From a virus (Duplodnaviria > Heunggongvirae > Uroviricota > Caudoviricetes), in the IMG/VR virus record IMGVR_UViG_2875722834_000005, positions 1 through 49,359 of that record: a stretch of DNA of 49,359 nucleotides. One strand, given 5' to 3'. Positions 5,478 through 39,980 of this stretch are shown here, piece by piece; the stretch's first letter is position 1, and every line of letters begins with the position of its first letter. The position numbers and the translations under genes were made by a program. The notes below the pieces were generated by a model. The model was given only the letters and a program-made list of their open reading frames with translations. It did no database searches and was not told the origin of the DNA.

Positions 5478-8400
5478 TCAGAACACCCCCGTTAATCGGC
5501 CAACCTGCACTCTCAGAACGTTGTTGCCATCCTTGACGCTGATTGTCTGGTTGGTCTGCTTCATGGCTCCCTCCCCAGCTGTCGAACCGTAGTTCTCAAA
5601 CGTCCCGGACTTATCCAGTTTCCAGCCAACAGAGCCGGCAACATAATTGTTCGACTGGATGTAATTGCCAATTTTTGCATTGCTTATGGTCCCGTCGCCA
5701 ATGACTGTATCCCTGATAATGGCCTGGCCATTCTGGATAACGAACGGCAGTGTTACAGTCCCGCCGACCATAGTAGTCACGGCGAAACGGTCTGCCAGGA
5801 AGATTACCTGTGACTGCATGCCGGAGGGTGTATTTTGAACCCCAATACCCATCCCGGCAGCGTAATACTGCCCGTTACTGGACACCCCCACCTTGATGTT
5901 ATACATCGCGCTGAGGTTACCGTTTACATCTGCTATAGCCTGTGCGTTGACGTTTATCGCTGCACTGTTTTCGCCTGATTTAACAGTCAGAGTGTTGATT
6001 TTTGTTGCCGAAGCCTGGGTGAAATCAGCAAGAGTTTCTGTCAGGTCCGTTGAGTTAGAGATATTGCCACCAGCTTCTGCATCCAGTGTGACCAGCGCGC
6101 GTGCGACCGCCTGGCTGGTATCGGCAATCGTAGTATCCACTCTGTCTATACTGGCACTGTTCCCGGCGTTCGTGGCGGTCTGCGAGCGACGGCTTACCAC
6201 CTGCGCCAGCCCATTCTGAATAATCGCGATTGCCGAGTTCTTCACTCCTCCCGTCATGCCGTCCATCGACACAGAAATCTCGTCGATCTTCACTTCGGCC
6301 TGAGCCAGCCCGTCAGCGTTCTCCAGGATGTCTTTCGCCTGCTGCTCGAGTTCGTCGGCATGGTTTTTAATTTCGTCAGCCATGCCAGCAATTTTTTCAT
6401 TGCTGTCCACCGCGTTCTCGATCAGGTCTTTGAACGTATCGGAGTCTTTAATTTCCTCCAGAATCACATCTGTGATATCGGAAACATCGATGCTGGCCTG
6501 TCCTCGCACCCATTCTGTGTACCCTGATTCGTTGCCGCTGCGGTCCACCAGCTGCGCGCGGTACCAGAAAATCTGCCCAGCCTTAAGGCCCATCTGCTGA
6601 TATTTGCGCTGCGGGTAAGGCACATCGGCCAGCAGCATGGCATCGTCTTCAGTACCGGTCAGGCTGTACTGAATTTCCGTCTTCAGCGTGTCGTCGGTAT
6701 TCGCCTGGAATCCCCAGTTCAGCTCGATACCGAACACCACGTTTTCAGAGGCGATAAAGCCAACCGGCTTCGGTGGATTGCCCACTTTACCCGTCAGCGT
6801 TTTCTCTTCTGAATAGCCCCATCCGGATGAAATTTCTGCGGCATTGATTGCGCGCACCCGCACCAGGTAGCGCCCGGCATAAATCCCCGGGACGTCGAAT
6901 GACGTGGTGGAGGTGCGCGGCACGTTAACCCAGTTCCCGTCATTGCGACGCCACTGTGCCTCATACGCGATAGCATTTTTCGCCTGGTCCCAGCTGACGC
7001 GCATGGTCTCAACGCTGATATTCTGCTGAACGACAGAAAACGAACTGATCGCGATATTAGCTGGCGGGGACTGATTACCGGGCGGAATTACACTTATTGG
7101 CCGCTGGTCGATAATGGCACCGGTATCGATACGCGCATATTTATCCGGATCGTGCAAAGCGCCAGCAATCGAATACGTTCCGTCATTATTATCCGTAACG
7201 CTGATAACGCGATATTGCTGCGCGTAAAGCTCTTCAGACTCGACAATCCACACCGATTCCACTGCAGGTGTTTCGCTGTATGCCGTTGTCACAGTGACGG
7301 CCCGCCCGTTTACGCTCTGTATCGTCCTGCTCTGCGATGCGCCGGACGGAAGGTTAACCATCAGACGGCTTCCGGGAGCGGCTGCCGAATCACGATCAAG
7401 CGTGATAACGCGACCGTTAACCGCGCTGATGCGCCCTCCCATCACTTTTCCGGAAAGCAGCTCATCGGCAACCGCGATGATATAACCAGGCTGTGGGATC
7501 TTACCGTCAAGACCAACATCGAACGACACGATGCGATCCTTGTTATTGGTCAGGATACCCCAACGTCCTTTGCGGTTTGCCTCTGACTGCCGGGTACAAC
7601 CAATGGCTGTCATTTCGAGCTGATTTGTGCCAAAGCGAGCAACGAGATCCTGCTCAAATACAGGCTCCATCGCATCCGCGTAGGCATTACCCGGATCGGA
7701 CCAGGAAACCAGTGCCGTGGTATAGCGGGTTTTGGTGGTGCTGCCCGAATAGGTAAAGCGCCCATTAACCACGTTTGCACGCGTGTAGCTGTAATCCACA
7801 TCGCGGGGCATATCCGCCAGCGCAACGATTTGATCGCCACCCCAGTACGTCATGCCCCGGAATATCGCCGCAAAATCACGTAACACGGTATAGGCGTCAT
7901 TCCTCTCCTGCACGTACACGTTACAGGTATAGCGAGGCTCAGTGCCGCTACCGCCTTTACCATCAGGAACCGGCTGATCGCAATATTGCGCGACCTGATA
8001 AAGCGTCCATTTATCAATATTGGCCGCCGTCAGGCGATTGCCCAGCCCAAAGCGGTCGCTCACCACCAGATCGTAAAAAATCCAGGCTGGATTATCCGTC
8101 CACGCCCACTTAAACGCCCCTGTCCATGTGCCGCTGTAGGTGCGGGTCTCCGGGTCATACGTATCCGGCACGCGGATAACGCGCCCGCGCGGTTCACAGG
8201 AAATTTGCGGGATGGAGCCGTTAAACTGGCTTGAGTCGAATTCGATGTACAGCAGCGCGGTATTTGGATAACGCAGTTTGGCGTCAATAACCTCTGTGTA
8301 GCTCTGCAGCGTCATCGTGTCGCCAATTTTCGCGCTGTTGGCATCCGCCGTAAGCTTACGCAGGCGCACCGTCCATGTACTGCCTGCCTGCGGTAAGTCG

Positions 8401-8933
8401 ATACGGTGGCTGCGTTCGTAGCCTGACGTGGTTTTCCCGGTGACGCTGGTATTAAGCACGGTCTGCCAGGTACCGCCATCTGTCTGCAGATCGATAGCGT
8501 AATTAATCGAATAGCCGACCAGATCGCCGTCGTCCTCCTGTTTAAACAGTGATGGCCATTTGAGGCGCAGACGAATGGCTGACAGCTGGGTGTTGGTAAA
8601 GGTATGCGTCCAGGCCGTAGCGCTTGACACTTCGGTGCCCACGCTGATTTCATTTTCTGTGCCGGGGATACCCTGAATATATTTTTGTGCCTGAGTCCCC
8701 GGACGAAATTCCCACGCCACGCCACTGAAGTTTTGCGATCCGTCTGCATTCTCCAGTGGCGTGCCATCGAGATAGATATCCTTCGCCGTCAACTGCCCTG
8801 CAAATTCGCCCTCTCCCAGTGCAACAAGAATTTTGGCTTTCGCTACGGACTGGAGATCGTCTGGTTGTTCAGTCGGGGTGCGTGAACTGGAGCTGCCGCC
8901 CTTGCGGCCTCTAATCGGAGTAGATGTAGCCAT
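5478..8933 (-). CDS. J: Tail tip attachment / host specificity protein J
   Basis: 1151 aa; N-terminal region matches lambda J; correct position after I. Confidence 0.9.
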   Translation of the reverse strand: MATSTPIRGRKGGSSSSRTPTEQPDDLQSVAKAKILVALGEGEFAGQLTAKDIYLDGTPLENADGSQNFSGVAWEFRPGTQAQKYIQGIPGTENEISVGTEVSSATAWTHTFTNTQLSAIRLRLKWPSLFKQEDDGDLVGYSINYAIDLQTDGGTWQTVLNTSVTGKTTSGYERSHRIDLPQAGSTWTVRLRKLTADANSAKIGDTMTLQSYTEVIDAKLRYPNTALLYIEFDSSQFNGSIPQISCEPRGRVIRVPDTYDPETRTYSGTWTGAFKWAWTDNPAWIFYDLVVSDRFGLGNRLTAANIDKWTLYQVAQYCDQPVPDGKGGSGTEPRYTCNVYVQERNDAYTVLRDFAAIFRGMTYWGGDQIVALADMPRDVDYSYTRANVVNGRFTYSGSTTKTRYTTALVSWSDPGNAYADAMEPVFEQDLVARFGTNQLEMTAIGCTRQSEANRKGRWGILTNNKDRIVSFDVGLDGKIPQPGYIIAVADELLSGKVMGGRISAVNGRVITLDRDSAAAPGSRLMVNLPSGASQSRTIQSVNGRAVTVTTAYSETPAVESVWIVESEELYAQQYRVISVTDNNDGTYSIAGALHDPDKYARIDTGAIIDQRPISVIPPGNQSPPANIAISSFSVVQQNISVETMRVSWDQAKNAIAYEAQWRRNDGNWVNVPRTSTTSFDVPGIYAGRYLVRVRAINAAEISSGWGYSEEKTLTGKVGNPPKPVGFIASENVVFGIELNWGFQANTDDTLKTEIQYSLTGTEDDAMLLADVPYPQRKYQQMGLKAGQIFWYRAQLVDRSGNESGYTEWVRGQASIDVSDITDVILEEIKDSDTFKDLIENAVDSNEKIAGMADEIKNHADELEQQAKDILENADGLAQAEVKIDEISVSMDGMTGGVKNSAIAIIQNGLAQVVSRRSQTATNAGNSASIDRVDTTIADTSQAVARALVTLDAEAGGNISNSTDLTETLADFTQASATKINTLTVKSGENSAAINVNAQAIADVNGNLSAMYNIKVGVSSNGQYYAAGMGIGVQNTPSGMQSQVIFLADRFAVTTMVGGTVTLPFVIQNGQAIIRDTVIGDGTISNAKIGNYIQSNNYVAGSVGWKLDKSGTFENYGSTAGEGAMKQTNQTISVKDGNNVLRVQVGRLTGVF

Positions 8934-21572: not shown

Positions 21573-21775
21573 ACGTAAAACCCTGCTGGCCCCCGGCGTC
21601 GTGATGTGGTGCCAACCTGAGATTCAAGGTCAGCAATATATTTTTTGAGATCGCTGACTGAAGTGGCTGTAAATTCCACTCTTCGACCGTCTTTCTGTAC
21701 CGTCGCCACGCGCTTTCCCATCATCAGGTCATGTAACGCAGCGCGCGCGGCATCCAGTTCAGTCTGTGTTGCCAT
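21569..21775 (-). CDS. W: Head-tail joining protein W
   Basis: 68 aa, near-identical to lambda W. Confidence 0.9.
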
Positions 21776-23697
21776 TATTCATCTCCAGATAATGCCCGCG
21801 CGTAATCCGCCAGGGTCTTGTTATTGTTACGGCTGCCTTCTTCCTCCAGCAGGCTGGCCAGAAGTGAATCAAGATTTAGCTGCCAGCGGGATATGCTTAT
21901 ACGCAGCGCCGCCAGTGCATAAACAAAGCAATCGAGCGCCTCATTTCGTCGTTTTTTGCTGTCCCATACGATCTTTTTCTTTCCGTCTACCCATTTTTCC
22001 ACCTGCTCTTCAGCTGTTAGTTGTTGGGCCTCTGTTAGATCGTAGATTTCTGGGTTATTCGGGAAATGAACCGCTCCCGCCAGCGGCTCGTCTCTTTGCG
22101 CCACCAGCGTGAAACGGTTATAAATCTGCTCTTTTGCGGTGTCTGTTCCTACCTCTGTGAGGTAAACACCATTCTTGTTACGCTTGCGTGGCATGTTCGC
22201 CACTGGCTTTCCATAAACCGACGCCCCCTTTATAGGGATCACACGAAACAGACCGTGTTTTTTTGAGCGGTTGTAGACGATGGTGGGATCAATGCCGCCA
22301 ATATCCCAGCAAGTGCGGGATATAACCATTTCGAGACCGTTCTGGCGCTTATACGTCCTGTTGATCGCTTCATCAACTCGAGCGAGAGTCGACTCATCAT
22401 CATGACGACCCATAATGATAATTTTGTCGATAAGCCAGCTTTCCTCTCCCGGCCCCCATCCCCAAACACGCATTTCGTAACGGTCAAGCTGGGAGTCAAT
22501 ACCCGCTGTCAGATATGCCACTCGCTCCGGCACAGACGCTTCAAAGTGCTCTTTTCGTTCCGCTAAAACTTCAGCATCGGGTCGTTCACCTATTTTCGGT
22601 TCCCACGTTTCGCCCAGGGTCGTGTTAACGAAAGTTTTTCGCTTACCCGTATCACCTTTTGTTTTTATCCAGTCCTTGACGATCTGCACCCAGGTTGTGA
22701 ACGGGCTATATGCGGTCCAGATGTGGAATGTAACGCTGTCAGGAGGTTCAATTTCGGTACCGGATGAAGAAAACCAGTTAAGGCCGTCTCGTGTCCAGAT
22801 ACCTGTTTCATCACAAATATACCTGGCCTCCAGAAATTCCAGCTCCTGTTGTTTAATCACACAGGCATTGTGTTCACAGAGGTAGTAAACGCTGGCAGGT
22901 TCTCCCGGAGACCATTTGAAGCCAAATGGTGTCTCTTTATCACCGAATTTCAGATACTGCTCTTCCCCACAGTGTGGGCATGGAACATGGAACCGAAGAA
23001 AATGTTCAGACTCCTTAGCAGCTCTTTCTATCTGGCACGTACCTTTGACTTTCGGTGTAGATCCGCGAATGGATTTCGGCCATACAGAACCCTCAATACG
23101 CTTATCACCCAGAAAGGTGGGAGAACCTTCTTTCTCGATGTCATCATCGAAAGCGGCGAGCTCGTCGTAGCCAGCCACATCAACTGATTTTTCACGGTAG
23201 TTTTTTGCAGCCTTACCGCCCAGGCACCAGAAACCACGACCATTCGAGAAACGCTTCATGCTCAGCGTATTGTCCCGGTGTTTTTTACCGTACCAGGGAG
23301 CAAGCGCCAGCAACGTCGGAATATCACGAATGGTCGGTTCTACATGAGACTTCATGAAGTTTTCAGCATCACCGTCGGTTGGTAACCATATTAGGGAGTT
23401 ACGCTGTTTATGTTGGATGAAATATGCGTAAACGCCGAGCAACATTTTTGAGTAGCCGACACGAGCCGATTTAACGACATTCACCTCGCGAATATAGTCA
23501 TTACCCATCGCATTCATAATTGCACGCTGAAATGGCAGTGTTTCCCAGCGCCCTTCCTGGTAGGCAGACTCTTTCGGGAGATAATAATTCTCATCTGCCC
23601 ATTCAACTGCTGTTTGCGGTTGCGGCCGGTACAGCGAACGTAACCCCGCCCGCGCAGAGTGCTGCAGCCCCTTAACCTGACTGTTCGATATATTCAC
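21775..23697 (-). CDS. A: Terminase large subunit A
   Basis: 640 aa, near-identical to lambda A N-terminal region. Confidence 0.95.
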
Positions 23698-24217
23698 TCA
23701 GCAACCCCGGTATCATTTCATCCAGCGCAGCTGCCTTGTTCATGGCCTTAATGATGTCCTTCTTGAGGAAATCAATATGTCGGTTCTCCAGCTCCGGGAA
23801 GCGCCGCTGAACCGACAGAGGTATTCCATCGAGAATGCTGGCGATTTCTCCGGCTACCCGCGACAGCACGAACGTGCAGAATGCGGTCTCCACCACTTCA
23901 GCGGACTCTTTTGCATTTTTTAATTCCTGAGCGTCAGCCTGAGCTCGCGTAAGTCGGTGTCGCTCATATTCAATCGTGCCAGGTTGAAGATCGGACTCAG
24001 AAGCGATACGGAGATCTTCAACTTCCTTCCGCAACTTTTCATTTTCTATAGCTGCATCGCGCGCACTGTACCATTCGATTGCAGCAGCAGATTCAAAGAG
24101 AACCTCATTACCTTTGCCACCACCGCGGACAACCGGCATACCTTGCTCCTGCCAGTTCTGAATCGTTCGGACGCTTACCCCGAAAATTTCGGATAAGCGT
24201 TTTTTATTAACCTCCAT
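23672..24217 (-). CDS. nu1: Terminase small subunit Nu1
   Basis: 181 aa, near-identical to lambda Nu1. Confidence 0.95.
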   Translation of the reverse strand: MEVNKKRLSEIFGVSVRTIQNWQEQGMPVVRGGGKGNEVLFESAAAIEWYSARDAAIENEKLRKEVEDLRIASESDLQPGTIEYERHRLTRAQADAQELKNAKESAEVVETAFCTFVLSRVAGEIASILDGIPLSVQRRFPELENRHIDFLKKDIIKAMNKAAALDEMIPGLLSEYIEQSG

Positions 24218-24392: not shown

Positions 24393-24404
24393 CGGACGCC
24401 GCCC
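24393..24404 (-). other. cosN cohesive-end site (GGGCGGCGTCCG) with lambda-like cosB context
   Basis: Minus-strand GGGGCGGCGTCCGCGCAGATTCTCGCTATTTATGAAAATTTTCTGG parallels the lambda left end GGGCGGCGACCTCGCGGGTTTTCGCTATTTATGAAAATTTTCCGG. Confidence 0.65.
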
Positions 24405-24462
24405 CGTAACAAGGCGGATCGCCGGAAAGGACCCGCAAACGATAATAATTATCAATTGCACA

Positions 24463-25191
24463 CTATCGACGGCACTGCTGCCAGATAACACCACCGGGGA
24501 AACATTCCATCATGATGGCCGTGCGGACATAGGAAGCCAGTTCATCCATCGCTTTCTTGTCTGCTGCCATTTGCTTTGTGACATCCAGCGCCGCACATTC
24601 AGCAGCGTTTTTCAGCGCGTTTTCGATCAACGTTTCAATGTTGGTATCAACACCAGGTTTAACTTTGAACTTATCGGCACTGACGGTTACCTTGTTCTGC
24701 GCTGGCTCATCACGCTGGATACCAAGGCTGATGTTGTAGATATTGGTCACCGGCTGAGGTGTTTCGATTGCCGCTGCGTGGATAGCACCATTTGCGATAG
24801 CGGCGTCCTTGATGAATGACACTCCATTGCGAATAAGTTCGAAGGAGACGGTGTCACGAATGCGCTGGTCCAGCTCGTCGATTGCCTTTTGTGCAGCAGA
24901 GGTATCAATCTCAACGCCAAGCGTCATCGAAGCGCAATATTGCTGCTCACCAAAACGCGTATTGACCAGGTGTTCAACGGCAAATTTCTGCCCTTCTGAT
25001 GTCAGAAAGGTAAAGTGATTTTCTTTCTGGTATTCAGTTGCTGTGTGTCTGGTTTCAGCAAAACCAAGCTCGCGCAATTCGGCTGTGCCAGATTTAGAAG
25101 GCAGATCACCAGACAGCAACGCGCCACGGAAAAACAGCGCATAAAGCACTTCATTAGCAGCGCCAGATAGCGTAATGATTTTGTTACTCAT
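24463..25191 (-). CDS. Hypothetical protein (243 aa) immediately upstream of cos
   Basis: ORF with AAGGAAA RBS at the internal ATG; no recognised family. Confidence 0.5.
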   Translation of the reverse strand: MSNKIITLSGAANEVLYALFFRGALLSGDLPSKSGTAELRELGFAETRHTATEYQKENHFTFLTSEGQKFAVEHLVNTRFGEQQYCASMTLGVEIDTSAAQKAIDELDQRIRDTVSFELIRNGVSFIKDAAIANGAIHAAAIETPQPVTNIYNISLGIQRDEPAQNKVTVSADKFKVKPGVDTNIETLIENALKNAAECAALDVTKQMAADKKAMDELASYVRTAIMMECFPGGVIWQQCRR

Positions 25192-25365: not shown

Positions 25366-25596
25366 CTATTTGTGGGTAAAGTTCGTAGTGCGCTGATCGT
25401 GCAAAATGATTTTAGTTGGGAACAGTTCGCAACTCTGTCCCATAAAAATCAGCATATTCCCATCTATCCCATATCCAGCGCATTGACCATCGGGATACTG
25501 AAGGGAGATTCCATCATCTCTTAGAAAGATCACCATCTCTTTTGTTTCAATTTGCATATAGCTACCTGGAGGATTTATGAATGCAAGGATTTTCAT
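25366..25596 (-). CDS. Hypothetical small protein (weak call)
   Basis: ORF only; its 5' end overlaps the start of the divergent plus-strand gene. Confidence 0.2.
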   Translation of the reverse strand: MKILAFINPPGSYMQIETKEMVIFLRDDGISLQYPDGQCAGYGIDGNMLIFMGQSCELFPTKIILHDQRTTNFTHK

Positions 25597-26191
25597 GGAC
25601 TATTACCATGAGATTGATTTTCCATCTTTATTCGCGAGAGCAGTGGAAAGCGATGACGATGTGGGTACTACATTGCGCATTCACCTACTTTGTGAGCGCA
25701 TGGTCGAAGCATGGATATGCGCATGCTGTGACTGCCAAGATCTCTTTGGAAGAGATAAAAACAAACTTTTAATCGAATGTAATACTAAAATATCCATGGC
25801 GGGAAACCTGGGAATCCCCCCGGAACTTATGAAATCACTTAAAACCATCAACTCAATGCGTAATGACCTTGCACACAATCCATCAATACAAAGCATTGCT
25901 GATTCAAGGATCCAGAGCCTGAAGGATACTCTGACTGAATACTTTAAACAGCATCCAACGGAACCCAGCATGGAAGAATCAAAACTGGGTATTTTTAACG
26001 CCGAGAATCAATTAACCGAAGAAGTTTCCTTAGATAGTGACAGTTCAAAAAACAGACTTAAGTTAATCTTGCTGTTCAGCAAGTTAATGCAGGCGTTAAT
26101 GCAATTAGTTGCAGCTAATCATAATGGGCGCTGGGATAACCAATTTAGCCAATTCGTTTACCATGTGACCATGAACGCAACAAAGAGATAA
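25577..26191 (+). CDS. Hypothetical protein with HEPN-like Rx4H motif; accessory gene in AT-rich segment
   Basis: 204-aa ORF with GGAGGA RBS; motif SMRNDLAHN fits the HEPN R-x4-6-H signature; opposite strand to the late operon. Confidence 0.5.
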   Translation: MNARIFMDYYHEIDFPSLFARAVESDDDVGTTLRIHLLCERMVEAWICACCDCQDLFGRDKNKLLIECNTKISMAGNLGIPPELMKSLKTINSMRNDLAHNPSIQSIADSRIQSLKDTLTEYFKQHPTEPSMEESKLGIFNAENQLTEEVSLDSDSSKNRLKLILLFSKLMQALMQLVAANHNGRWDNQFSQFVYHVTMNATKR

Positions 26192-26337
26192 ATCCAAGCC
26201 CGTTTTGTACGGGCTGTTGCATTATCACAGGCACTCAGTGAATGCTTTCTGTAATGCAGTTAGTCGAGTAGCAATACAGCATGCCTCTCAACCACGGGAT
26301 TGGATATAACCCAGTGAATGTATTATCGATGAAAAAA

Positions 26338-26361: not shown

Positions 26362-26613
26362 TTATCTTGACCTGATGATTTTTTCTATAGCTAAATGGAC
26401 ACGTTGATAATCATCAGTCCCAACGGGATATGAAGGGCTTCTTCTTCCGGCCACTTCGCCGTTGTAAACCATCTGAACTTTGATTACCTCAACATTTTCA
26501 CCATCCCAGATTTCAGTTCCACGAGAAACTTTGTAATGCGTGTTACTTGGGTGTGGTTTAGATGCTGTCACTAACTCTACAGAGTCTTCGATGGGGAAAT
26601 ATGTTTTTGCCAT
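26362..26613 (-). CDS. Hypothetical protein (83 aa) downstream of lysis cassette
   Basis: ORF followed by terminator-like hairpin; no recognised family. Confidence 0.45.
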   Translation of the reverse strand: MAKTYFPIEDSVELVTASKPHPSNTHYKVSRGTEIWDGENVEVIKVQMVYNGEVAGRRSPSYPVGTDDYQRVHLAIEKIIRSR

Positions 26614-26675: not shown

Positions 26676-26927
26676 TCATGGCTTGTCCACAAATTTTAGA
26701 GTGCTCGTCTTTACCTTTTTGGGATTACAGTTCACCTTCCATGCTTTGTTATGCACTAGGATGTCGCGCTTCGTCTGCTTATCCATAACGGCAATATCGT
26801 GGTCAGTAAGATAGATGGGCTTTACCCAATCACAGGCGGTATCAACGACTACCGGGGCGGGTCCAGTTGTTGCGCAGCTCACGATCAACATCGTCGCCAA
26901 GCATATGGTTAACACTCTGCTGTACAT
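26676..26927 (-). CDS. Outer-membrane lipoprotein, candidate o-spanin
   Basis: Signal peptide plus lipobox IVSC; overlaps the 3' end of the preceding TM/coiled-coil gene in another frame. Confidence 0.55.
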   Translation of the reverse strand: MYSRVLTICLATMLIVSCATTGPAPVVVDTACDWVKPIYLTDHDIAVMDKQTKRDILVHNKAWKVNCNPKKVKTSTLKFVDKP

Positions 26928-27117
26928 TGCTGGCCTCTTTCGTTGTTTCTACCCGGCGTTCAGCAACAGCTTCAGTAGCTGTTGCACGTTCTTCAGTGCG
27001 TTGCTGGTCCGCTTTTGTCTCAGCGATGTTAGTACCGCGCGATTTACCCAGACCAAAAGCACCTGCAATTGCAGCCAGCACAGCAACAGCCAGGCCGATA
27101 ATCATTTCAAGTCCCAT
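26842..27117 (-). CDS. Candidate i-spanin (N-terminal TM helix plus charged periplasmic domain)
   Basis: Start set at MGLEMII, 8 nt after endolysin stop with GAGG RBS. Confidence 0.5.
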   Translation of the reverse strand: MGLEMIIGLAVAVLAAIAGAFGLGKSRGTNIAETKADQQRTEERATATEAVAERRVETTKEASNVQQSVNHMLGDDVDRELRNNWTRPGSR

Positions 27118-27124
27118 AGCGACC

Positions 27125-27742
27125 TCATACCAGTGCGGCTTTTGCTTTGGCGTAGCGTGCACGACGGTCGTTAATGCCGTTCTGTCCACCATTGATGATC
27201 TGGGTGATGCGAACCAGATCGCCGGAATAGCTCAGGCATCCGCTGGTGGCGTAGAACCATGCAGCTGAACGTGCCGCGTTGATATCCTTTTCCAGCAACT
27301 CAGGATTACTGACTAAATCCAGTTTTAATCCCGTTCCGCAGCGGCGGTAATTATCAAGACCGGTAATCTGAATCAGCCCACGGCCACGATATTTCCACCC
27401 ATCGCCTGATGCTTTGTTACCGAGGCGATTGCTGTACACCAGATTTGCAATGGCTGGCTGATTGGCTACGTGCCCTTTTTCTTTGTCACGCCCAAGCATA
27501 TATGCCTGATAGTTCGTAATGCGGCGTCCAAATGTGGTCAGCAGAGCGGCTGGGGTGTAGTTGAAGCTCTCCACCAGCGCAGAGAATCCCGCTGATTCAT
27601 GTCCTGACTGAGCAATAAACATTGCCTGGTCTTCAGGCTTAACAATGCCGAACTCTTTCATTGCCGCGTCAATGTGCGGAAACCAGCGCGTAGCTAACCC
27701 GGCGCTTACACCAGCCGCCTGTTGAAATTGTGATTGGTTCAT
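27125..27742 (-). CDS. Endolysin, glycoside hydrolase family 19 (chitinase-like lysozyme)
   Basis: Motifs AQSGHESAGF and YRGRGLIQITG resemble GH19 catalytic signatures. Confidence 0.75.
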   Translation of the reverse strand: MNQSQFQQAAGVSAGLATRWFPHIDAAMKEFGIVKPEDQAMFIAQSGHESAGFSALVESFNYTPAALLTTFGRRITNYQAYMLGRDKEKGHVANQPAIANLVYSNRLGNKASGDGWKYRGRGLIQITGLDNYRRCGTGLKLDLVSNPELLEKDINAARSAAWFYATSGCLSYSGDLVRITQIINGGQNGINDRRARYAKAKAALV

Positions 27743-28041
27743 TAATGCCTCAGCGTATCAACGAGACGCGCCACATTCCCACGAGCCCATAACACGGCAG
27801 CGCAAATAAGAAGGTTTACGATGACCACCATCCAGTGTGACTCCTGGTAGAGGCCGAACAGATATCGGAATGGAACGCTGGCATAAACCAGCACAACGAA
27901 GTACGCCAGCAATGATATAGCGGGGCGATGTCTTGCCCCTTCACGCTGGTAGAACATCAGGACAAGGACGATGACCGCACAAATACCTGCATTCACCATC
28001 GCTGACGGATCACTTGTTACCATTGCTGGCCCCTCCTCCAC
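27742..28041 (-). CDS. Holin-like small membrane protein
   Basis: About 99 aa with two to three predicted TM helices, directly upstream of endolysin. Confidence 0.55.
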   Translation of the reverse strand: MEEGPAMVTSDPSAMVNAGICAVIVLVLMFYQREGARHRPAISLLAYFVVLVYASVPFRYLFGLYQESHWMVVIVNLLICAAVLWARGNVARLVDTLRH

Positions 28042-28405
28042 GGAATCGCGAAAGAATACTGAACAGGCTTCCCAAATCCTGACTGTTGAAAAATGTGAGC
28101 ACTTTGATTGTCATCGCCGCCACTACAACAGCACCAAGTGCGTCTAATGGTCTGTCACTATACCCGGTAGCCTGTGACAGCTTTGAACCCACCAGTCCAG
28201 CGGCAAGAACGCCAACAATGAATGACGTCATGAAGTAAGCAATCAATCGTACTCGTGTGATATTTGCCGCTGTCGCTACATAAAATACTGCACCAGCGAA
28301 TGCGCCAAATACCACGCCATAATCAATACCGGTTGCAAGACCAAATACGCTGGCTCCCATCAGGCCACCAGCCGCGACCGTAGTGCCAGAAACAGGATCG
28401 GACAT
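28010..28405 (-). CDS. Holin-like membrane protein
   Basis: 131 aa, multiple TM helices, first gene of the lysis cassette. Confidence 0.55.
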   Translation of the reverse strand: MSDPVSGTTVAAGGLMGASVFGLATGIDYGVVFGAFAGAVFYVATAANITRVRLIAYFMTSFIVGVLAAGLVGSKLSQATGYSDRPLDALGAVVVAAMTIKVLTFFNSQDLGSLFSILSRFRGGGASNGNK

Positions 28406-28499: not shown

Positions 28500-29399
28500 T
28501 TAGCGAATATTCCACATCATCGTGCTGCCATTATGATTTTCAATAATTTTCGCAGCAGGACTCGTACCAAATGAATGCATGTAGCAATGATGTATAGTCA
28601 GCACAAGATCCTGCAGAGTTTGGTCGCTCTCCAGCTCCATAATGTTCAAACCAATGCTTTGCGCTTTATCCAGATGAATATGTCTAGCATGCGCATAGGT
28701 TGTATGATGATTGTTTAGCTCATCACAAATTCGCTTAGCCTTATCTTGAGCGTTAGCATGACCTGCAAACATACCAGTACACAGCCATTTTTGTACTATT
28801 TCATTAGCCCAAACAATAGCCTTTTCACATTCACCAATGAGAGTCGGGTTTAGCTTTTGAAGAGTAAATTGCCACCATTGGATCGCTGCAGCATTTTCAG
28901 AAATCTCTTTCTTAGCTCGCTCATACTCTTCTATGATCGCATGAGATGATAAACCACCAAGCTGCGGATCAATTGGCCCCAAATTTGACTGTTTGCCCAA
29001 TACAATCTGTTCGGCACAGCAAGCCAACATGGTCCCACAACTCATTGAGATCATAGGAACAATTGCCCGGATATTGGTCCCAAATTTTGAACGAAGATAA
29101 TGACCAATAGATTCCAATGCTGCAATATCTCCCCCTGGGGTATGAAGCAAGATATCCAGCCCTAATGACGTGTCTAAGCCGTTAATGGCTGACATAAGAC
29201 CATTTTTATCGTCATCTGACATTTGTATTAAATGCTGCAACCCAGGCCCCCCCTTCTGGAGGAAGCCTGAGTAATATGAAATTACGTTTCGGCCTGTATG
29301 CTTCGACAACTCTCGTAAGTACTTGTGGCGAACCTCATCCGCTGGTGTACGTTGAGCAATAGTACCCATCTCGCCCAACACGTCTATCCAATTTGGCAT
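28500..29399 (-). CDS. ClpP/crotonase-fold serine peptidase (S49/SDH-like), moron between Q and lysis genes
   Basis: 299 aa; HTPGGDIAA and MISMSCGTMLA motifs resemble ClpP/SppA-type peptidases; AT-richer than flanking phage DNA. Confidence 0.7.
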   Translation of the reverse strand: MPNWIDVLGEMGTIAQRTPADEVRHKYLRELSKHTGRNVISYYSGFLQKGGPGLQHLIQMSDDDKNGLMSAINGLDTSLGLDILLHTPGGDIAALESIGHYLRSKFGTNIRAIVPMISMSCGTMLACCAEQIVLGKQSNLGPIDPQLGGLSSHAIIEEYERAKKEISENAAAIQWWQFTLQKLNPTLIGECEKAIVWANEIVQKWLCTGMFAGHANAQDKAKRICDELNNHHTTYAHARHIHLDKAQSIGLNIMELESDQTLQDLVLTIHHCYMHSFGTSPAAKIIENHNGSTMMWNIR

Positions 29400-29970: not shown

Positions 29971-30660
29971 TCAATCCAGTTTTGCAAGACTTGAGTCTAA
30001 ATTTGTCGCCTTTTGTTGTGAACGTGATCGCGTAACCTGCAATAAAGCCCCGCTATCCAGTCGCAGGAAGATGCTGCGCATCTCAACCCAGCGGTCAGTA
30101 AAGGTCTCTGACCAGTTTTTTGGCGTTACGCCAACCAGCGACGCCAGCGCCTGATATTCGTACGTCTCACGCCCTGCCAGCTCTGCTTTCACGTCCTGAG
30201 CCGCGAGCCAGACAAGCTTCTTCAGGCGCTCCATCGTTTTGCCGGCCACCTTCTTCGCGCCGAGCTGCTCCCGGAACTCTGCCCACGCCCATTGAGTGAT
30301 TTCCACCTGATAGCACCAGCGCACGTTCTCGCTATAGTTCCATAGCAGCCACGCTTTCTGATGGTCTTCAAGCGACAGAACAGCGCGGCGCCACGATGCG
30401 GTCCCGTACTCTACCGGGCCCACCAGCGCGATAGACGAGCCCTTAGCGCGGGACTGGTTGCCGCTCATCGGCTGGCCGTCAGGATTGACCATGCGCTGCT
30501 TATCCTTGTCGAATACCTTTTTCCGGCCCCGACTCCGCGCCGTTGCGGTGAATTGCGCGTTCTCGGCGAAAGCTACCAGCTGCCCTTTCGTCGCCCCGCT
30601 GAGGTCTGCGGTCGCCACAATGAGCTGCTGACGTACGTATTCCAGTTGCTGACTGTTCAT
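29971..30660 (-). CDS. Putative late-gene antiterminator Q (assigned by position; family unconfirmed)
   Basis: 229-aa ORF between ninG and the late/lysis region; no similarity to lambda Q seen by eye. Confidence 0.45.
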   Translation of the reverse strand: MNSQQLEYVRQQLIVATADLSGATKGQLVAFAENAQFTATARSRGRKKVFDKDKQRMVNPDGQPMSGNQSRAKGSSIALVGPVEYGTASWRRAVLSLEDHQKAWLLWNYSENVRWCYQVEITQWAWAEFREQLGAKKVAGKTMERLKKLVWLAAQDVKAELAGRETYEYQALASLVGVTPKNWSETFTDRWVEMRSIFLRLDSGALLQVTRSRSQQKATNLDSSLAKLD

Positions 30661-37711: not shown

Positions 37712-38422
37712 ATGGAAAAGAAAAAGATTCTCACCCCCGCTCAAGTGGCTGATTCACAGCGTTTAAAAGCCCTTTACGAAGCGAAGAAAAAAGAACTGGG
37801 TATTACTCAGCAATCCATTGCGGACGCGCTGGACATTTCTCAGGGTGCCGTCGGCCATTACCTCAATGGAAGGAATGCCTTAAATACAGCGGTAGCATCG
37901 GTCTTTGCCAGGCTTCTTGGGGTTAGTGTCTCTGATTTCAGCCCGTCACTTGCGAAGGATATCTCTGATATGAGCTCGGTGGCGTCGGAAAATACTTCTT
38001 TCGCAGGGCATTATTCACCTGGCTCAAAATATCCGGTGATTAGCAAAGTTCAGGCGGGCGCCTGGTGTGAAGCTGTTGAGCCGTACACCCTTAAAGATAT
38101 CGACCTTTGGCTTGAATCAGATGCTCACATTCAGGGGGAGGCGTTCTGGCTGCAGGTTGATGGTGACTCAATGACGGCGCCAGCTGGCTTGAGCATTCCT
38201 GAAGGAACCTTTGTCCTCTTCGATACTGGTCGGGAGGCGATCAACGGAAGCTTGGTAATAGCAAAGCTATCCGATTCTAACGAGGCGACTTTTAAGAAGC
38301 TGGTGATCGATGGTGGGCAGAAGTACCTGAAGGGCCTTAACCCGCAATGGCCACTCGTGCCGATTAATGGTAACTGCCGTATCATTGGTGTAGCTGTAGA
38401 GACGAAGCTGCGGCTGGTCTGA
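37712..38422 (+). CDS. cI: CI repressor (HTH N-domain, S24 self-cleaving C-domain)
   Basis: Lambda CI-like blocks (KKELGITQQSIAD; FSPS; VQAG; GDSM; TFKKL); no leader before ATG, as for PRM transcripts. Confidence 0.9.
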   Translation: MEKKKILTPAQVADSQRLKALYEAKKKELGITQQSIADALDISQGAVGHYLNGRNALNTAVASVFARLLGVSVSDFSPSLAKDISDMSSVASENTSFAGHYSPGSKYPVISKVQAGAWCEAVEPYTLKDIDLWLESDAHIQGEAFWLQVDGDSMTAPAGLSIPEGTFVLFDTGREAINGSLVIAKLSDSNEATFKKLVIDGGQKYLKGLNPQWPLVPINGNCRIIGVAVETKLRLV

Positions 38423-38571: not shown

Positions 38572-39051
38572 ATGGATAAAATTAATTACCCACCCCTGTT
38601 TGAGCCACGGTTCCATGACATGGATGAAGCTGGATTAAAATCGTATTGTGTCGATTGCTTTCCTTCATCATCCAGGCGAGGCATGCTATACTGTAATTTT
38701 ATACAGCTACTCGAATCTATTCGAGAATTATCTGCTCAATATGGCTGTTTTACAGAAATATGGGTTGATGGTTCATACACCACGTCTAAACCAGAGCCTG
38801 ATGATATTGATATTTTGTTGGTATGTGACTATAGCAAGATAAACTCAATACCTGTCATGCTTCGGGGCCGCGTCGATAATTTGCTTGACCGAAACTACAT
38901 CAAACAAAACTACAAAATTGATGTCCTACTACTCATGAAGAATTTAGATGACCCTAACTATGATTATGAGTACTGGCGTAGCTACTGGCGCGGTTGGTTT
39001 GGTTTTGATCGCAGTGAAAACCCGAAAGGGTTAGTGAGGATTTTTTTATGA
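38572..39051 (+). CDS. Minimal nucleotidyltransferase-fold protein (159 aa), first gene of operon in rexAB-equivalent position
   Basis: GS-x8-DDIDILLV with downstream KIDV fits the Pol-beta NTase hG[GS]..DxD..D signature; AT-rich; downstream of cI. Confidence 0.55.
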   Translation: MDKINYPPLFEPRFHDMDEAGLKSYCVDCFPSSSRRGMLYCNFIQLLESIRELSAQYGCFTEIWVDGSYTTSKPEPDDIDILLVCDYSKINSIPVMLRGRVDNLLDRNYIKQNYKIDVLLLMKNLDDPNYDYEYWRSYWRGWFGFDRSENPKGLVRIFL

Positions 39052-39980
39052 ATGATAAATCAATGTTTAAAAATTGCGATAAACGCATTGATTTCATTCA
39101 AAAAGAAGTCGATGCAATGAAGCAAAACAAAACCAGGTCCTTTGCTGACATGCTTCTTTATCGCTCCATGGATTCTCATCTGAGCGATTTGAAGGCCGAA
39201 AAATTAAAGCAAGATAGTCGGCACCCACTTATCGATTTTTTTGAGCTGCGGCTGAAAGGCTCTGAGGTTGACTTTGGCTCTATTCCTTTAGAGCTGCTTG
39301 GGGCTATTTCAACAAATCTTGCAGCGCTAATACAAAGAGCAACACACAAAATTGCCTCAGGCAAGGACTCAAAAAAAGTTCCCTACGACGTGAAAAGCTC
39401 CTTAAACCTCAGGCTGGCTGATTTATCCCCTGGGTCTACAAAATTGGGCGTCACCTTCTCTACAGGAATAGCAGAATTAGTAGAAACAGTACCCAGCAAG
39501 GCTGTAAAAGGCATATTCGATTTGTTGTTAAGCGATGACGACAACAACTTCATGAATCACGTCGCTGAAATTGGATACAATTCCACTGTAAGCCTTAAGA
39601 GAATCGTAGAGGAATGTGATAAACACAACTTAACATTTGATGCAAGTTGGACCGGTCCATTTAGTAATGGCACCAAGGTGGCAACTATTGACTCCAATAA
39701 AATTAAGTACTTGGTGAGTAGACTTACATCAACCATTTCATCCCCTCCCATTACTGAAACGGTTACAGGCGAACTGGTCGTTCTATCCAAATATGGGAAG
39801 CTGGAGCTTGATGTTGGTGGTGAACATTTAAAGGCTTCCTATCCGATTGAAATGCTAGATTTAATACAAAAAAAACACAAGGTCGGACAGATTGTTTCTC
39901 TTTTAGTGGAGACTACTGAGATTCACAATGATCGCATAGGTCTGTACCGTAAAAACCATCTTGTTAAATCGGTTCTTTAA
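39048..39980 (+). CDS. Hypothetical 310-aa partner protein, translationally coupled to the NTase-fold gene
   Basis: Start ATG overlaps upstream TGA (ATGA); no recognisable motifs; followed by a strong terminator. Confidence 0.55.
   Translation: MNDKSMFKNCDKRIDFIQKEVDAMKQNKTRSFADMLLYRSMDSHLSDLKAEKLKQDSRHPLIDFFELRLKGSEVDFGSIPLELLGAISTNLAALIQRATHKIASGKDSKKVPYDVKSSLNLRLADLSPGSTKLGVTFSTGIAELVETVPSKAVKGIFDLLLSDDDNNFMNHVAEIGYNSTVSLKRIVEECDKHNLTFDASWTGPFSNGTKVATIDSNKIKYLVSRLTSTISSPPITETVTGELVVLSKYGKLELDVGGEHLKASYPIEMLDLIQKKHKVGQIVSLLVETTEIHNDRIGLYRKNHLVKSVL

Follow-up and report, generated by a model that had tools for sequence, protein, structure and literature searches.

A probable phi80-type TaiEcA/AtiEcA module in a lambdoid prophage and the relation of its HEPN-fold protein to HepS

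We analyzed a stretch of DNA of 49,359 nucleotides carrying a lambdoid prophage (hereafter the window), focusing on a 204-aa gene encoded opposite to the late operon and on the small open reading frame that diverges from it. It is virtually certain that this locus is a Tai/Ati defence and counter-defence system. It very probably corresponds to the TaiEcA/AtiEcA module of phi80, carried here by an mEp237/phi80-like lambdoid prophage and comprising a TaiEcA protein of HEPN fold that is related to HepS, for which we infer a HepS-like action blocked by Ati. The locus itself is already known and needs no new explanation, having been characterized by He et al. 2024 (Nat Commun 15:7539; PMC11364771). 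What the present analysis adds is the connection of Tai with HepS and with HEPN proteins, which is unreported in the literature that we searched: no such link was found there, the term HEPN is absent from He et al. 2024 (PMC11364771) and the paper on HepS mentions neither Tai nor phi80.

The Tai/Ati locus of the window

The 204-aa gene (tai) occupies positions 25577-26191 on the plus strand, at about 1.2 kb from cos. The late operon runs on the minus strand and includes TerL (21775-23697), Nu1 (23672-24217) and the spanin, endolysin and holin genes (26676-28405), and the lambdoid prophage encodes Q at 29971-30660. The location of tai between the lysis genes and cos/Nu1 corresponds to a prophage accessory hot spot of Tai systems. 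The cohesive-end position of cos could be placed at about 24393-24404 by aligning the segment, at 97.4% nucleotide identity, with the annotated right end of phi80, and cosQ follows directly (approximately 24405-24459). A GGAGGA Shine-Dalgarno sequence can be read on the plus strand at 25568-25573, three nucleotides before the ATG of tai. With G+C contents of 0.405 (204-aa gene) and 0.403 (small frame), both lie below the 0.517 of the whole window. An earlier note, made from the sequence, had described an opposite-strand 204-aa gene lying in an AT-rich segment between the lysis genes and cos, preceded by a GGAGGA ribosome-binding site and containing the string SMRNDLAHN, and each of these features was confirmed.

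No sigma-70 promoter for tai could be detected upstream of the gene on the plus strand using a consensus scan. Six nucleotides past its stop codon, a G+C-rich 7-bp hairpin (AGCCCGU/ACGGGCU, 26197-26215) folds on both strands with energies of -15.5 and -15.9 kcal/mol (z about -2.4 to -2.5, RNA fold). This hairpin fails the criteria of a terminator scan and has no T-run on the plus strand; judged from its sequence it may correspond to the place where the tai transcript ends (3') and is not a canonical terminator. The divergent frame, when extended mechanically, spans 25366-25596 on the minus strand, encodes 76 aa and shares 20 nt with the start of the 204-aa gene. The start that is conserved among Ati homologues is Met14 of this frame, which gives a 63-aa product (25366-25557) and a gap of 19 nt to tai.

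The 204-aa protein is identical to phi80 gp63 (PHI80_63, TaiEcA) at 203 of 204 positions and the 76-aa protein to gp64 (PHI80_64, AtiEcA) at 75 of 76. Among 5426 complete E. coli genomes, 91 carry the same module, Nissle 1917 and the phi80dlacZ cloning strains being examples. In the published work, phi80 orf63 was named TaiEcA, for 'tail assembly inhibition', and orf64 AtiEcA (PMC11364771). A phi80 lysogen blocks the lambdoid siphoviruses HK106, HK544 and HK578, whether superinfecting or co-resident, in a tai-dependent manner; in the presence of TaiEcA, injection and replication of the invader's DNA are normal and only tailless capsids are released (PMC11364771). Tailless capsids were the sole product with TaiEcA, TaiEcB or TaiEcD, the transfer of a cos plasmid was unaffected, and the authors argued for a direct inhibition of assembly and not for abortive infection (PMC11364771). 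Mutations allowing escape from Tai alter the central tail fibre J towards its C-terminus, where the escape residue sits at an oligomerisation interface in AlphaFold models (PMC11364771). Cultures carrying Tai collapse at high MOI and are protected at low MOI, and none of the Tai versions tested restricted lambda (PMC11364771).

TaiEcA is constitutive in the phi80 lysogen (PMC11364771) and, the phi80 protein being 99.5% identical to that of the window, this agrees with the expression from the lysogen that the earlier note had suggested from the orientation of the gene. AtiEcA is co-transcribed with the Q-dependent late operon and neutralizes Tai, allowing the prophage to build its own tails; Q-driven late transcription, which is antisense through tai, additionally reduces the level of TaiEcA, an arrangement termed a 'noncontiguous operon' (PMC11364771). 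Deletion of orf64 cripples phi80 upon induction and selects for IS insertions in orf63, and a drop in titre was reported for this deletion only, orf62, orf65 and orf66 having also been deleted singly (PMC11364771). The locus is a textbook-quality case in which a prophage carries a defence gene together with the matching antidote, expressed late.

An Ati homologue of 63-69 aa, divergent and located 19-21 nt upstream of the tai homologue, was present in all four independent phage contexts that we looked up, in which the Tai homologues are 48-63% identical to TaiEcA. One pair lies between the lysis and terminase genes of a phage with a Mu-F-type head, another next to arc/ant, the third beside a minor tail gene and the last between tail-tip genes. 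These positions (before the terminase, between tail genes, by arc/ant) agree with Table S3 of PMC11364771; the published Tai hot spots are situated before packaging genes, between tail genes and in the arc-mnt region (PMC11364771). Identity to the Ati of the window ranges over 35-89% among the Ati homologues, which share a block FL(R/K/E)DxG that is invariant or nearly so, and an AF2 model of Ati displays a four-stranded beta meander (pLDDT 79). No model of Pfam or NCBIfam matched the 204-aa or the 76-aa protein, and PHROGs gives 'unknown function' for both. There is consequently an annotation gap, the Tai family being without a model in Pfam, NCBIfam and PADLOC v2 (2023) and Ati homologues being mislabelled as 'Fur-regulated protein'.

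Several neighbouring features were recorded in the course of this analysis. The best Fur-box-like site of the whole window (15/19, GATAATAATTATC palindrome) lies at 24435-24459, inside cosQ and by cos, and may explain why gp64 and gp66 homologues came to be labelled 'Fur-regulated protein'. An 83-aa frame at 26362-26613 (minus strand), between the spanin genes and tai, had no match in Pfam, NCBIfam, PADLOC or PHROGs. Between Q and the holin genes, at 28500-29399 on the minus strand, a gene in a segment of 41-44% GC encodes a ClpP-like serine protease of the SDH type (299 aa; PF01972, E = 2e-21); also annotated in a prophage of E. coli Nissle, it looks like an accessory gene within the late operon. 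Finally, an AT-rich operon of two genes (38-42% GC; 38572-39051 and 39048-39980, both on the plus strand) is found just downstream of the CI-type repressor gene (37712-38422) and matches the PADLOC candidate defence system PDC-M63 (M63A with E = 7e-40, also Pfam DUF6932; M63B with E = 7.5e-45). It is probably a second prophage defence moron.

The HEPN motif of TaiEcA and its relation to HepS

The string SMRNDLAHN corresponds to residues 93-101 of the 204-aa protein, R95 being encoded at 25859-25861 and H100 at 25874-25876. The codons of R95-N96-D97-L98-A99-H100 (25859-25876, plus strand) hence spell an R-x4-H motif that also has the stricter form R-N-x3-H. Taken by itself the motif is weak evidence, because R-x4-6-H is common in shuffled versions of the protein (59%, as compared to 2% for R-N-x3-H), and it gains weight only when its conservation and the predicted fold are taken into account; the 204-aa protein contains a second R-x4-6-H string at R4-H11.

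None of 19 close homologues (47-98% identity), all of which come from Enterobacteriaceae where the source organism is named, deviates at R95, N96 or H100. Searching 1.8 billion cluster representatives with a profile retrieved 210 relatives at E ≤ 1e-3, nearly all of them stand-alone proteins of 170-215 aa. When 137 distant relatives drawn from this set (16-50% identity) were aligned, the only positions conserved at 90% or more were H36, E40, K71, R95, N96 and H100. Individual members of the Tai family match the Pfam HEPN families RiboL-PSP (23 members), Cthe_2314, Abi_2, Apea and Csm6, and the 204-aa protein itself gave weak matches to CARF_HEPN of PADLOC (E = 0.004-0.012). Its predicted fold is the all-alpha helical bundle of HEPN proteins. 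We conclude that TaiEcA is a stand-alone HEPN-fold protein with a conserved catalytic motif, for which RNase activity is predicted. In the HEPN superfamily such activity is metal-independent and arises from a composite active site formed by a dimer. To our knowledge, the inactive HEPN proteins of the MtlR type are without this motif. The earlier note had interpreted the string as a HEPN R-x4-6-H motif and had proposed to look for a HEPN-like fold and for conservation in homologues; the fold was found, the motif proved invariant or near-invariant, and the profile match to HepS upholds the same interpretation.

The closest solved relative of TaiEcA, both by sequence profile and by structure, is HepS of the Salmonella prophage Gifsy-1. 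A search of the PDB with the single 204-aa sequence gave no match. With a profile of the 19 close sequences HepS was the best match in the PDB, though a weak one (E = 7e-4), and with the 137-sequence profile it was detected at E = 8.9e-19 over HepS residues 18-155, a strong match that depends on a profile into which a single round of distant matches had been taken, so that some drift is possible. [quoted passage not shown] This comparison covers the HepS residues displayed in the profile alignments; a 48-aa fragment of HepS found no match by tblastn in the phage collection, nor in an index of 5.8 billion proteins.

HepS (Sargen et al. 2026, Nature 652:201; PDB 9oij, 9oik) is a 212-aa 'HEPN solo' protein of Gifsy-1 (PMC13043305). 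It is a prophage-encoded HEPN anticodon nuclease, cutting tRNA, which is constitutive and forms an inactive tetramer at rest; bound to nascent J, it is opened allosterically by a 32-residue J peptide (lambda J 902-933, key residue F924) (PMC13043305). R100 and H105 are both needed for RNA cleavage and the H105A mutant loses all protection, and HepS blocks the assembly of particles with little effect on DNA replication (PMC13043305). Its binding is predicted to clash with the trimerisation of J, and Gifsy-1, -2 and -3 escape it by means of a J protein with Ile at the F924 position (PMC13043305). HepS is non-toxic when over-expressed (PMC13043305), and no self-toxicity of TaiEcA is reported in the Tai and HepS papers.

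Mode of action of TaiEcA and the tail fibre J

In the mechanism that we propose, TaiEcA would act like HepS and bind the newly made J of the invading phage. This binding would withhold J from tail-tip assembly and at the same time open the HEPN active site for the cleavage of RNA, probably tRNA. [quoted passage not shown] What was described as 'tail assembly inhibition' would then result, at least in part, from RNA cleavage that depends on the trigger, combined with sequestration of J. The proposal that TaiEcA is a J-activated RNase draws on the invariance of the catalytic triad across a very divergent family and on the near likeness of the Tai and HepS phenotypes; it is weakened by the preference of the Tai authors for assembly inhibition, by the lack of restriction of lambda and by an identity to HepS of about 15%. 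On balance we consider it plausible, with arguments of similar weight on either side. A requirement of the HEPN catalytic residues for defence, as predicted from the alignments, likewise has about an even chance of being real.

The tail fibre of the prophage itself was compared with those of its relatives. Over its last 300 residues, the window J (5481-8933, minus strand) shares 99.3% identity with mEp237 J, 93.3% with phi80 J and 85.7% with HK544 J. The window J and phi80 J show 20 differences in this region, and 11 of them fall within a patch of 32 residues, 1050-1081 (5691-5786, minus strand; hypergeometric P = 3e-7), which is equivalent to lambda J 902-933 in MAFFT alignments. The patch contains QAIIRDTVIGDG in the window J, and the C-terminal or central-straight-fibre domain of HK544 or phi80 J contains PFVIQNGQTFIRASFIQDG. 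The residue equivalent to F924 is Ile in the window J according to MAFFT, Phe in phi80 and HK544, and Phe in 110 of the 113 distinct J relatives sampled. The window prophage thus carries both an Ati and a 'silent' Ile in the style of Gifsy. Patch 1050-1081 is a candidate for the target or trigger of Tai, considering the escape mutations and the HepS peptide described above (PMC11364771, PMC13043305). Tai and HepS could represent one family that was published twice, under different mechanisms. On this view TaiEcA, acting as a HEPN (anticodon) nuclease with J as its trigger, would need R95/H100 for defence, AtiEcA would be the first inhibitor protein dedicated to a nuclease of the HepS type and the J patch an epitope selected by such defences; this composite reading of the alignments seems to us as open to confirmation as to rejection.

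TaiEcA might instead be purely a stoichiometric inhibitor of tail assembly, in line with the original proposal. By attaching to the C-terminal region of J it would hinder trimerisation and the assembly of the tail tip, the HEPN fold serving as a mere scaffold and the R-N-x3-H motif having no catalytic part in defence. Tailless capsids as the only product with TaiEcA, TaiEcB and TaiEcD, with DNA replication and cos-plasmid transfer unaffected, are what such an inhibitor would be expected to yield (PMC11364771), but the collapse of cultures at high MOI and their protection at low MOI fit an abortive-type mechanism equally well. The escape mutations in J, at an interface of oligomerisation modelled by AlphaFold (PMC11364771), and the predicted clash of HepS binding with J trimerisation (PMC13043305) also favour a direct obstruction, although in the homologue HepS the H105A substitution abolishes protection (PMC13043305). 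Moreover, the invariance of Arg, Asn and His among close homologues, and their conservation of at least 90% in the 137 distant relatives, are hard to explain for a pure scaffold. We therefore retain this inhibitor as a possible explanation, and a somewhat doubtful one.

A classical toxin-antitoxin or addiction module, where a HEPN RNase toxin would be continuously restrained by a small protein and would stabilize the prophage, appears very unlikely. A HEPN protein does adjoin a small conserved partner, the two proteins of the SalB pair bind each other in a two-hybrid assay, and deletion of ati selects IS insertions in tai (PMC11364771); this deletion, however, lowers the phage titre on induction and does not kill the lysogen, and Tai is constitutive in lysogens without harm whereas Ati is made only late, under the control of Q (PMC11364771). 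Furthermore, an Ati-like gene was found beside only 5 of 57 published Tai homologues (PMC11364771), and the two genes are divergent and form no operon. The pair misfits a classical toxin-antitoxin system because of this divergent organization, of the late-only neutralizer and of the absence of an MNT domain. The suggestion of the earlier note that the small divergent frame acts as an antitoxin partner holds in so far as the orf64 product neutralizes Tai (PMC11364771); it does so as a Q-dependent late counter-defence and not as a co-expressed antitoxin.

The notion that the small frame has no connection with the 204-aa gene and is regulated by iron or Fur, which stems from its label in phi80 ('putative Fur-regulated protein, ORF x171.8') and from the source names of homologues, is most improbable, as the best Fur-box-like site (15/19) is about 0.9 kb away, in cosQ beyond gp66, nothing above 12/19 occurs near ati/tai, and the anti-Tai role was demonstrated genetically (PMC11364771).

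One further gene of the region has a sequence connection to J. The gp66-like frame of 242 aa (24466-25191, minus strand) is the counterpart of PHI80_66, with an N-terminus resembling that of N15 gp59. A segment of about 60 aa (residues 83-142) shows homology with the central straight fibre of J, as seen with Pfam PF09327 (E = 5.6e-5, above the curated cutoff) and by BLASTP against the window J (33% identity, E = 6e-5), and a Phe is present on the strand equivalent to the trigger (NGVSFIKD, compared to GNQIFMND in lambda). The full-length form was found only in phi80 and in phage Fraca. The product of this gene was considered as a third component of the system and rejected: it is missing beside Tai homologues elsewhere, it is present in Fraca without tai/ati, and deletion of phi80 orf66 had no reported effect (PMC11364771).

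Comparison with known systems

HEPN-MNT toxin-antitoxin systems of types II and VII (PDB 7ae2, 5yep, 8xdj) are defined by an MNT nucleotidyltransferase that serves as antitoxin and is encoded adjacently within one operon, and no such gene is found at the tai locus. The partner of Tai is not a nucleotidyltransferase, the two genes are divergent, the neutralizer is made only in the lytic cycle and the HEPN protein of the Tai system is not intrinsically toxic. Two other prophage systems can be compared with Tai by description. Tab (tail assembly blocker) of Pseudomonas aeruginosa prophages, as cited in PMC11364771, similarly blocks the tail assembly of invaders and possesses a cognate counter-defence acting in the lytic cycle. 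Tha of Staphylococcus aureus prophages, as far as it is portrayed in the Tai and HepS papers, shares the adjacent counter-defence and the noncontiguous-operon arrangement (PMC13043305, PMC11364771) and differs in being described as an entirely different system, with a non-specific RNase and another tail protein as the trigger.

The TaiEcA/AtiEcA locus of phi80 is the closest counterpart of the one in the window. The two have the same order of genes (gp66-like gene, ati, opposite-strand tai), the same position upstream of cos and of the packaging genes and the same 'noncontiguous operon' layout. The prophage of the window is nevertheless a mosaic with respect to phi80: an 83-aa frame is found on the lysis side of tai where phi80 has rha, the lysis cassette differs, and J is 93% identical to that of phi80 with the changes concentrated in a single patch of 32 aa.

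TaiEcA and HepS are both stand-alone HEPN proteins of about 200 aa (<250 aa), encoded by lambdoid prophages, and their R-N-x3-H motifs align. Both are constitutive, point mutations near the C-terminus of the tail-tip protein J confer escape from either of them, and in both cases the production of infectious particles is blocked without arrest of DNA replication and protection is seen only at low MOI. They differ by their low identity (about 15%) and by the way in which the host prophage is spared, Gifsy-1 relying on a silent J variant (Ile for F924) and no partner, whereas TaiEcA has the protein inhibitor Ati. Members of the HepS family are 'solo' proteins with no partner or inhibitor gene, whereas an Ati homologue lies directly upstream of tai. 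HepS restricts lambda and the tested Tai versions did not, which indicates that the specificity of the trigger differs, and nuclease activity, tetramer and trigger binding have been demonstrated for HepS only. The comparison connects two recent papers that show no citation of one another in the literature searched, one describing Tai as a direct assembly blocker with no enzymatic activity considered and the other establishing HepS as a proven J-activated tRNA nuclease. If the HEPN motif were needed for Tai defence, the mechanism of Tai would have to be revised and Ati would become a tool against nucleases of the HepS type.
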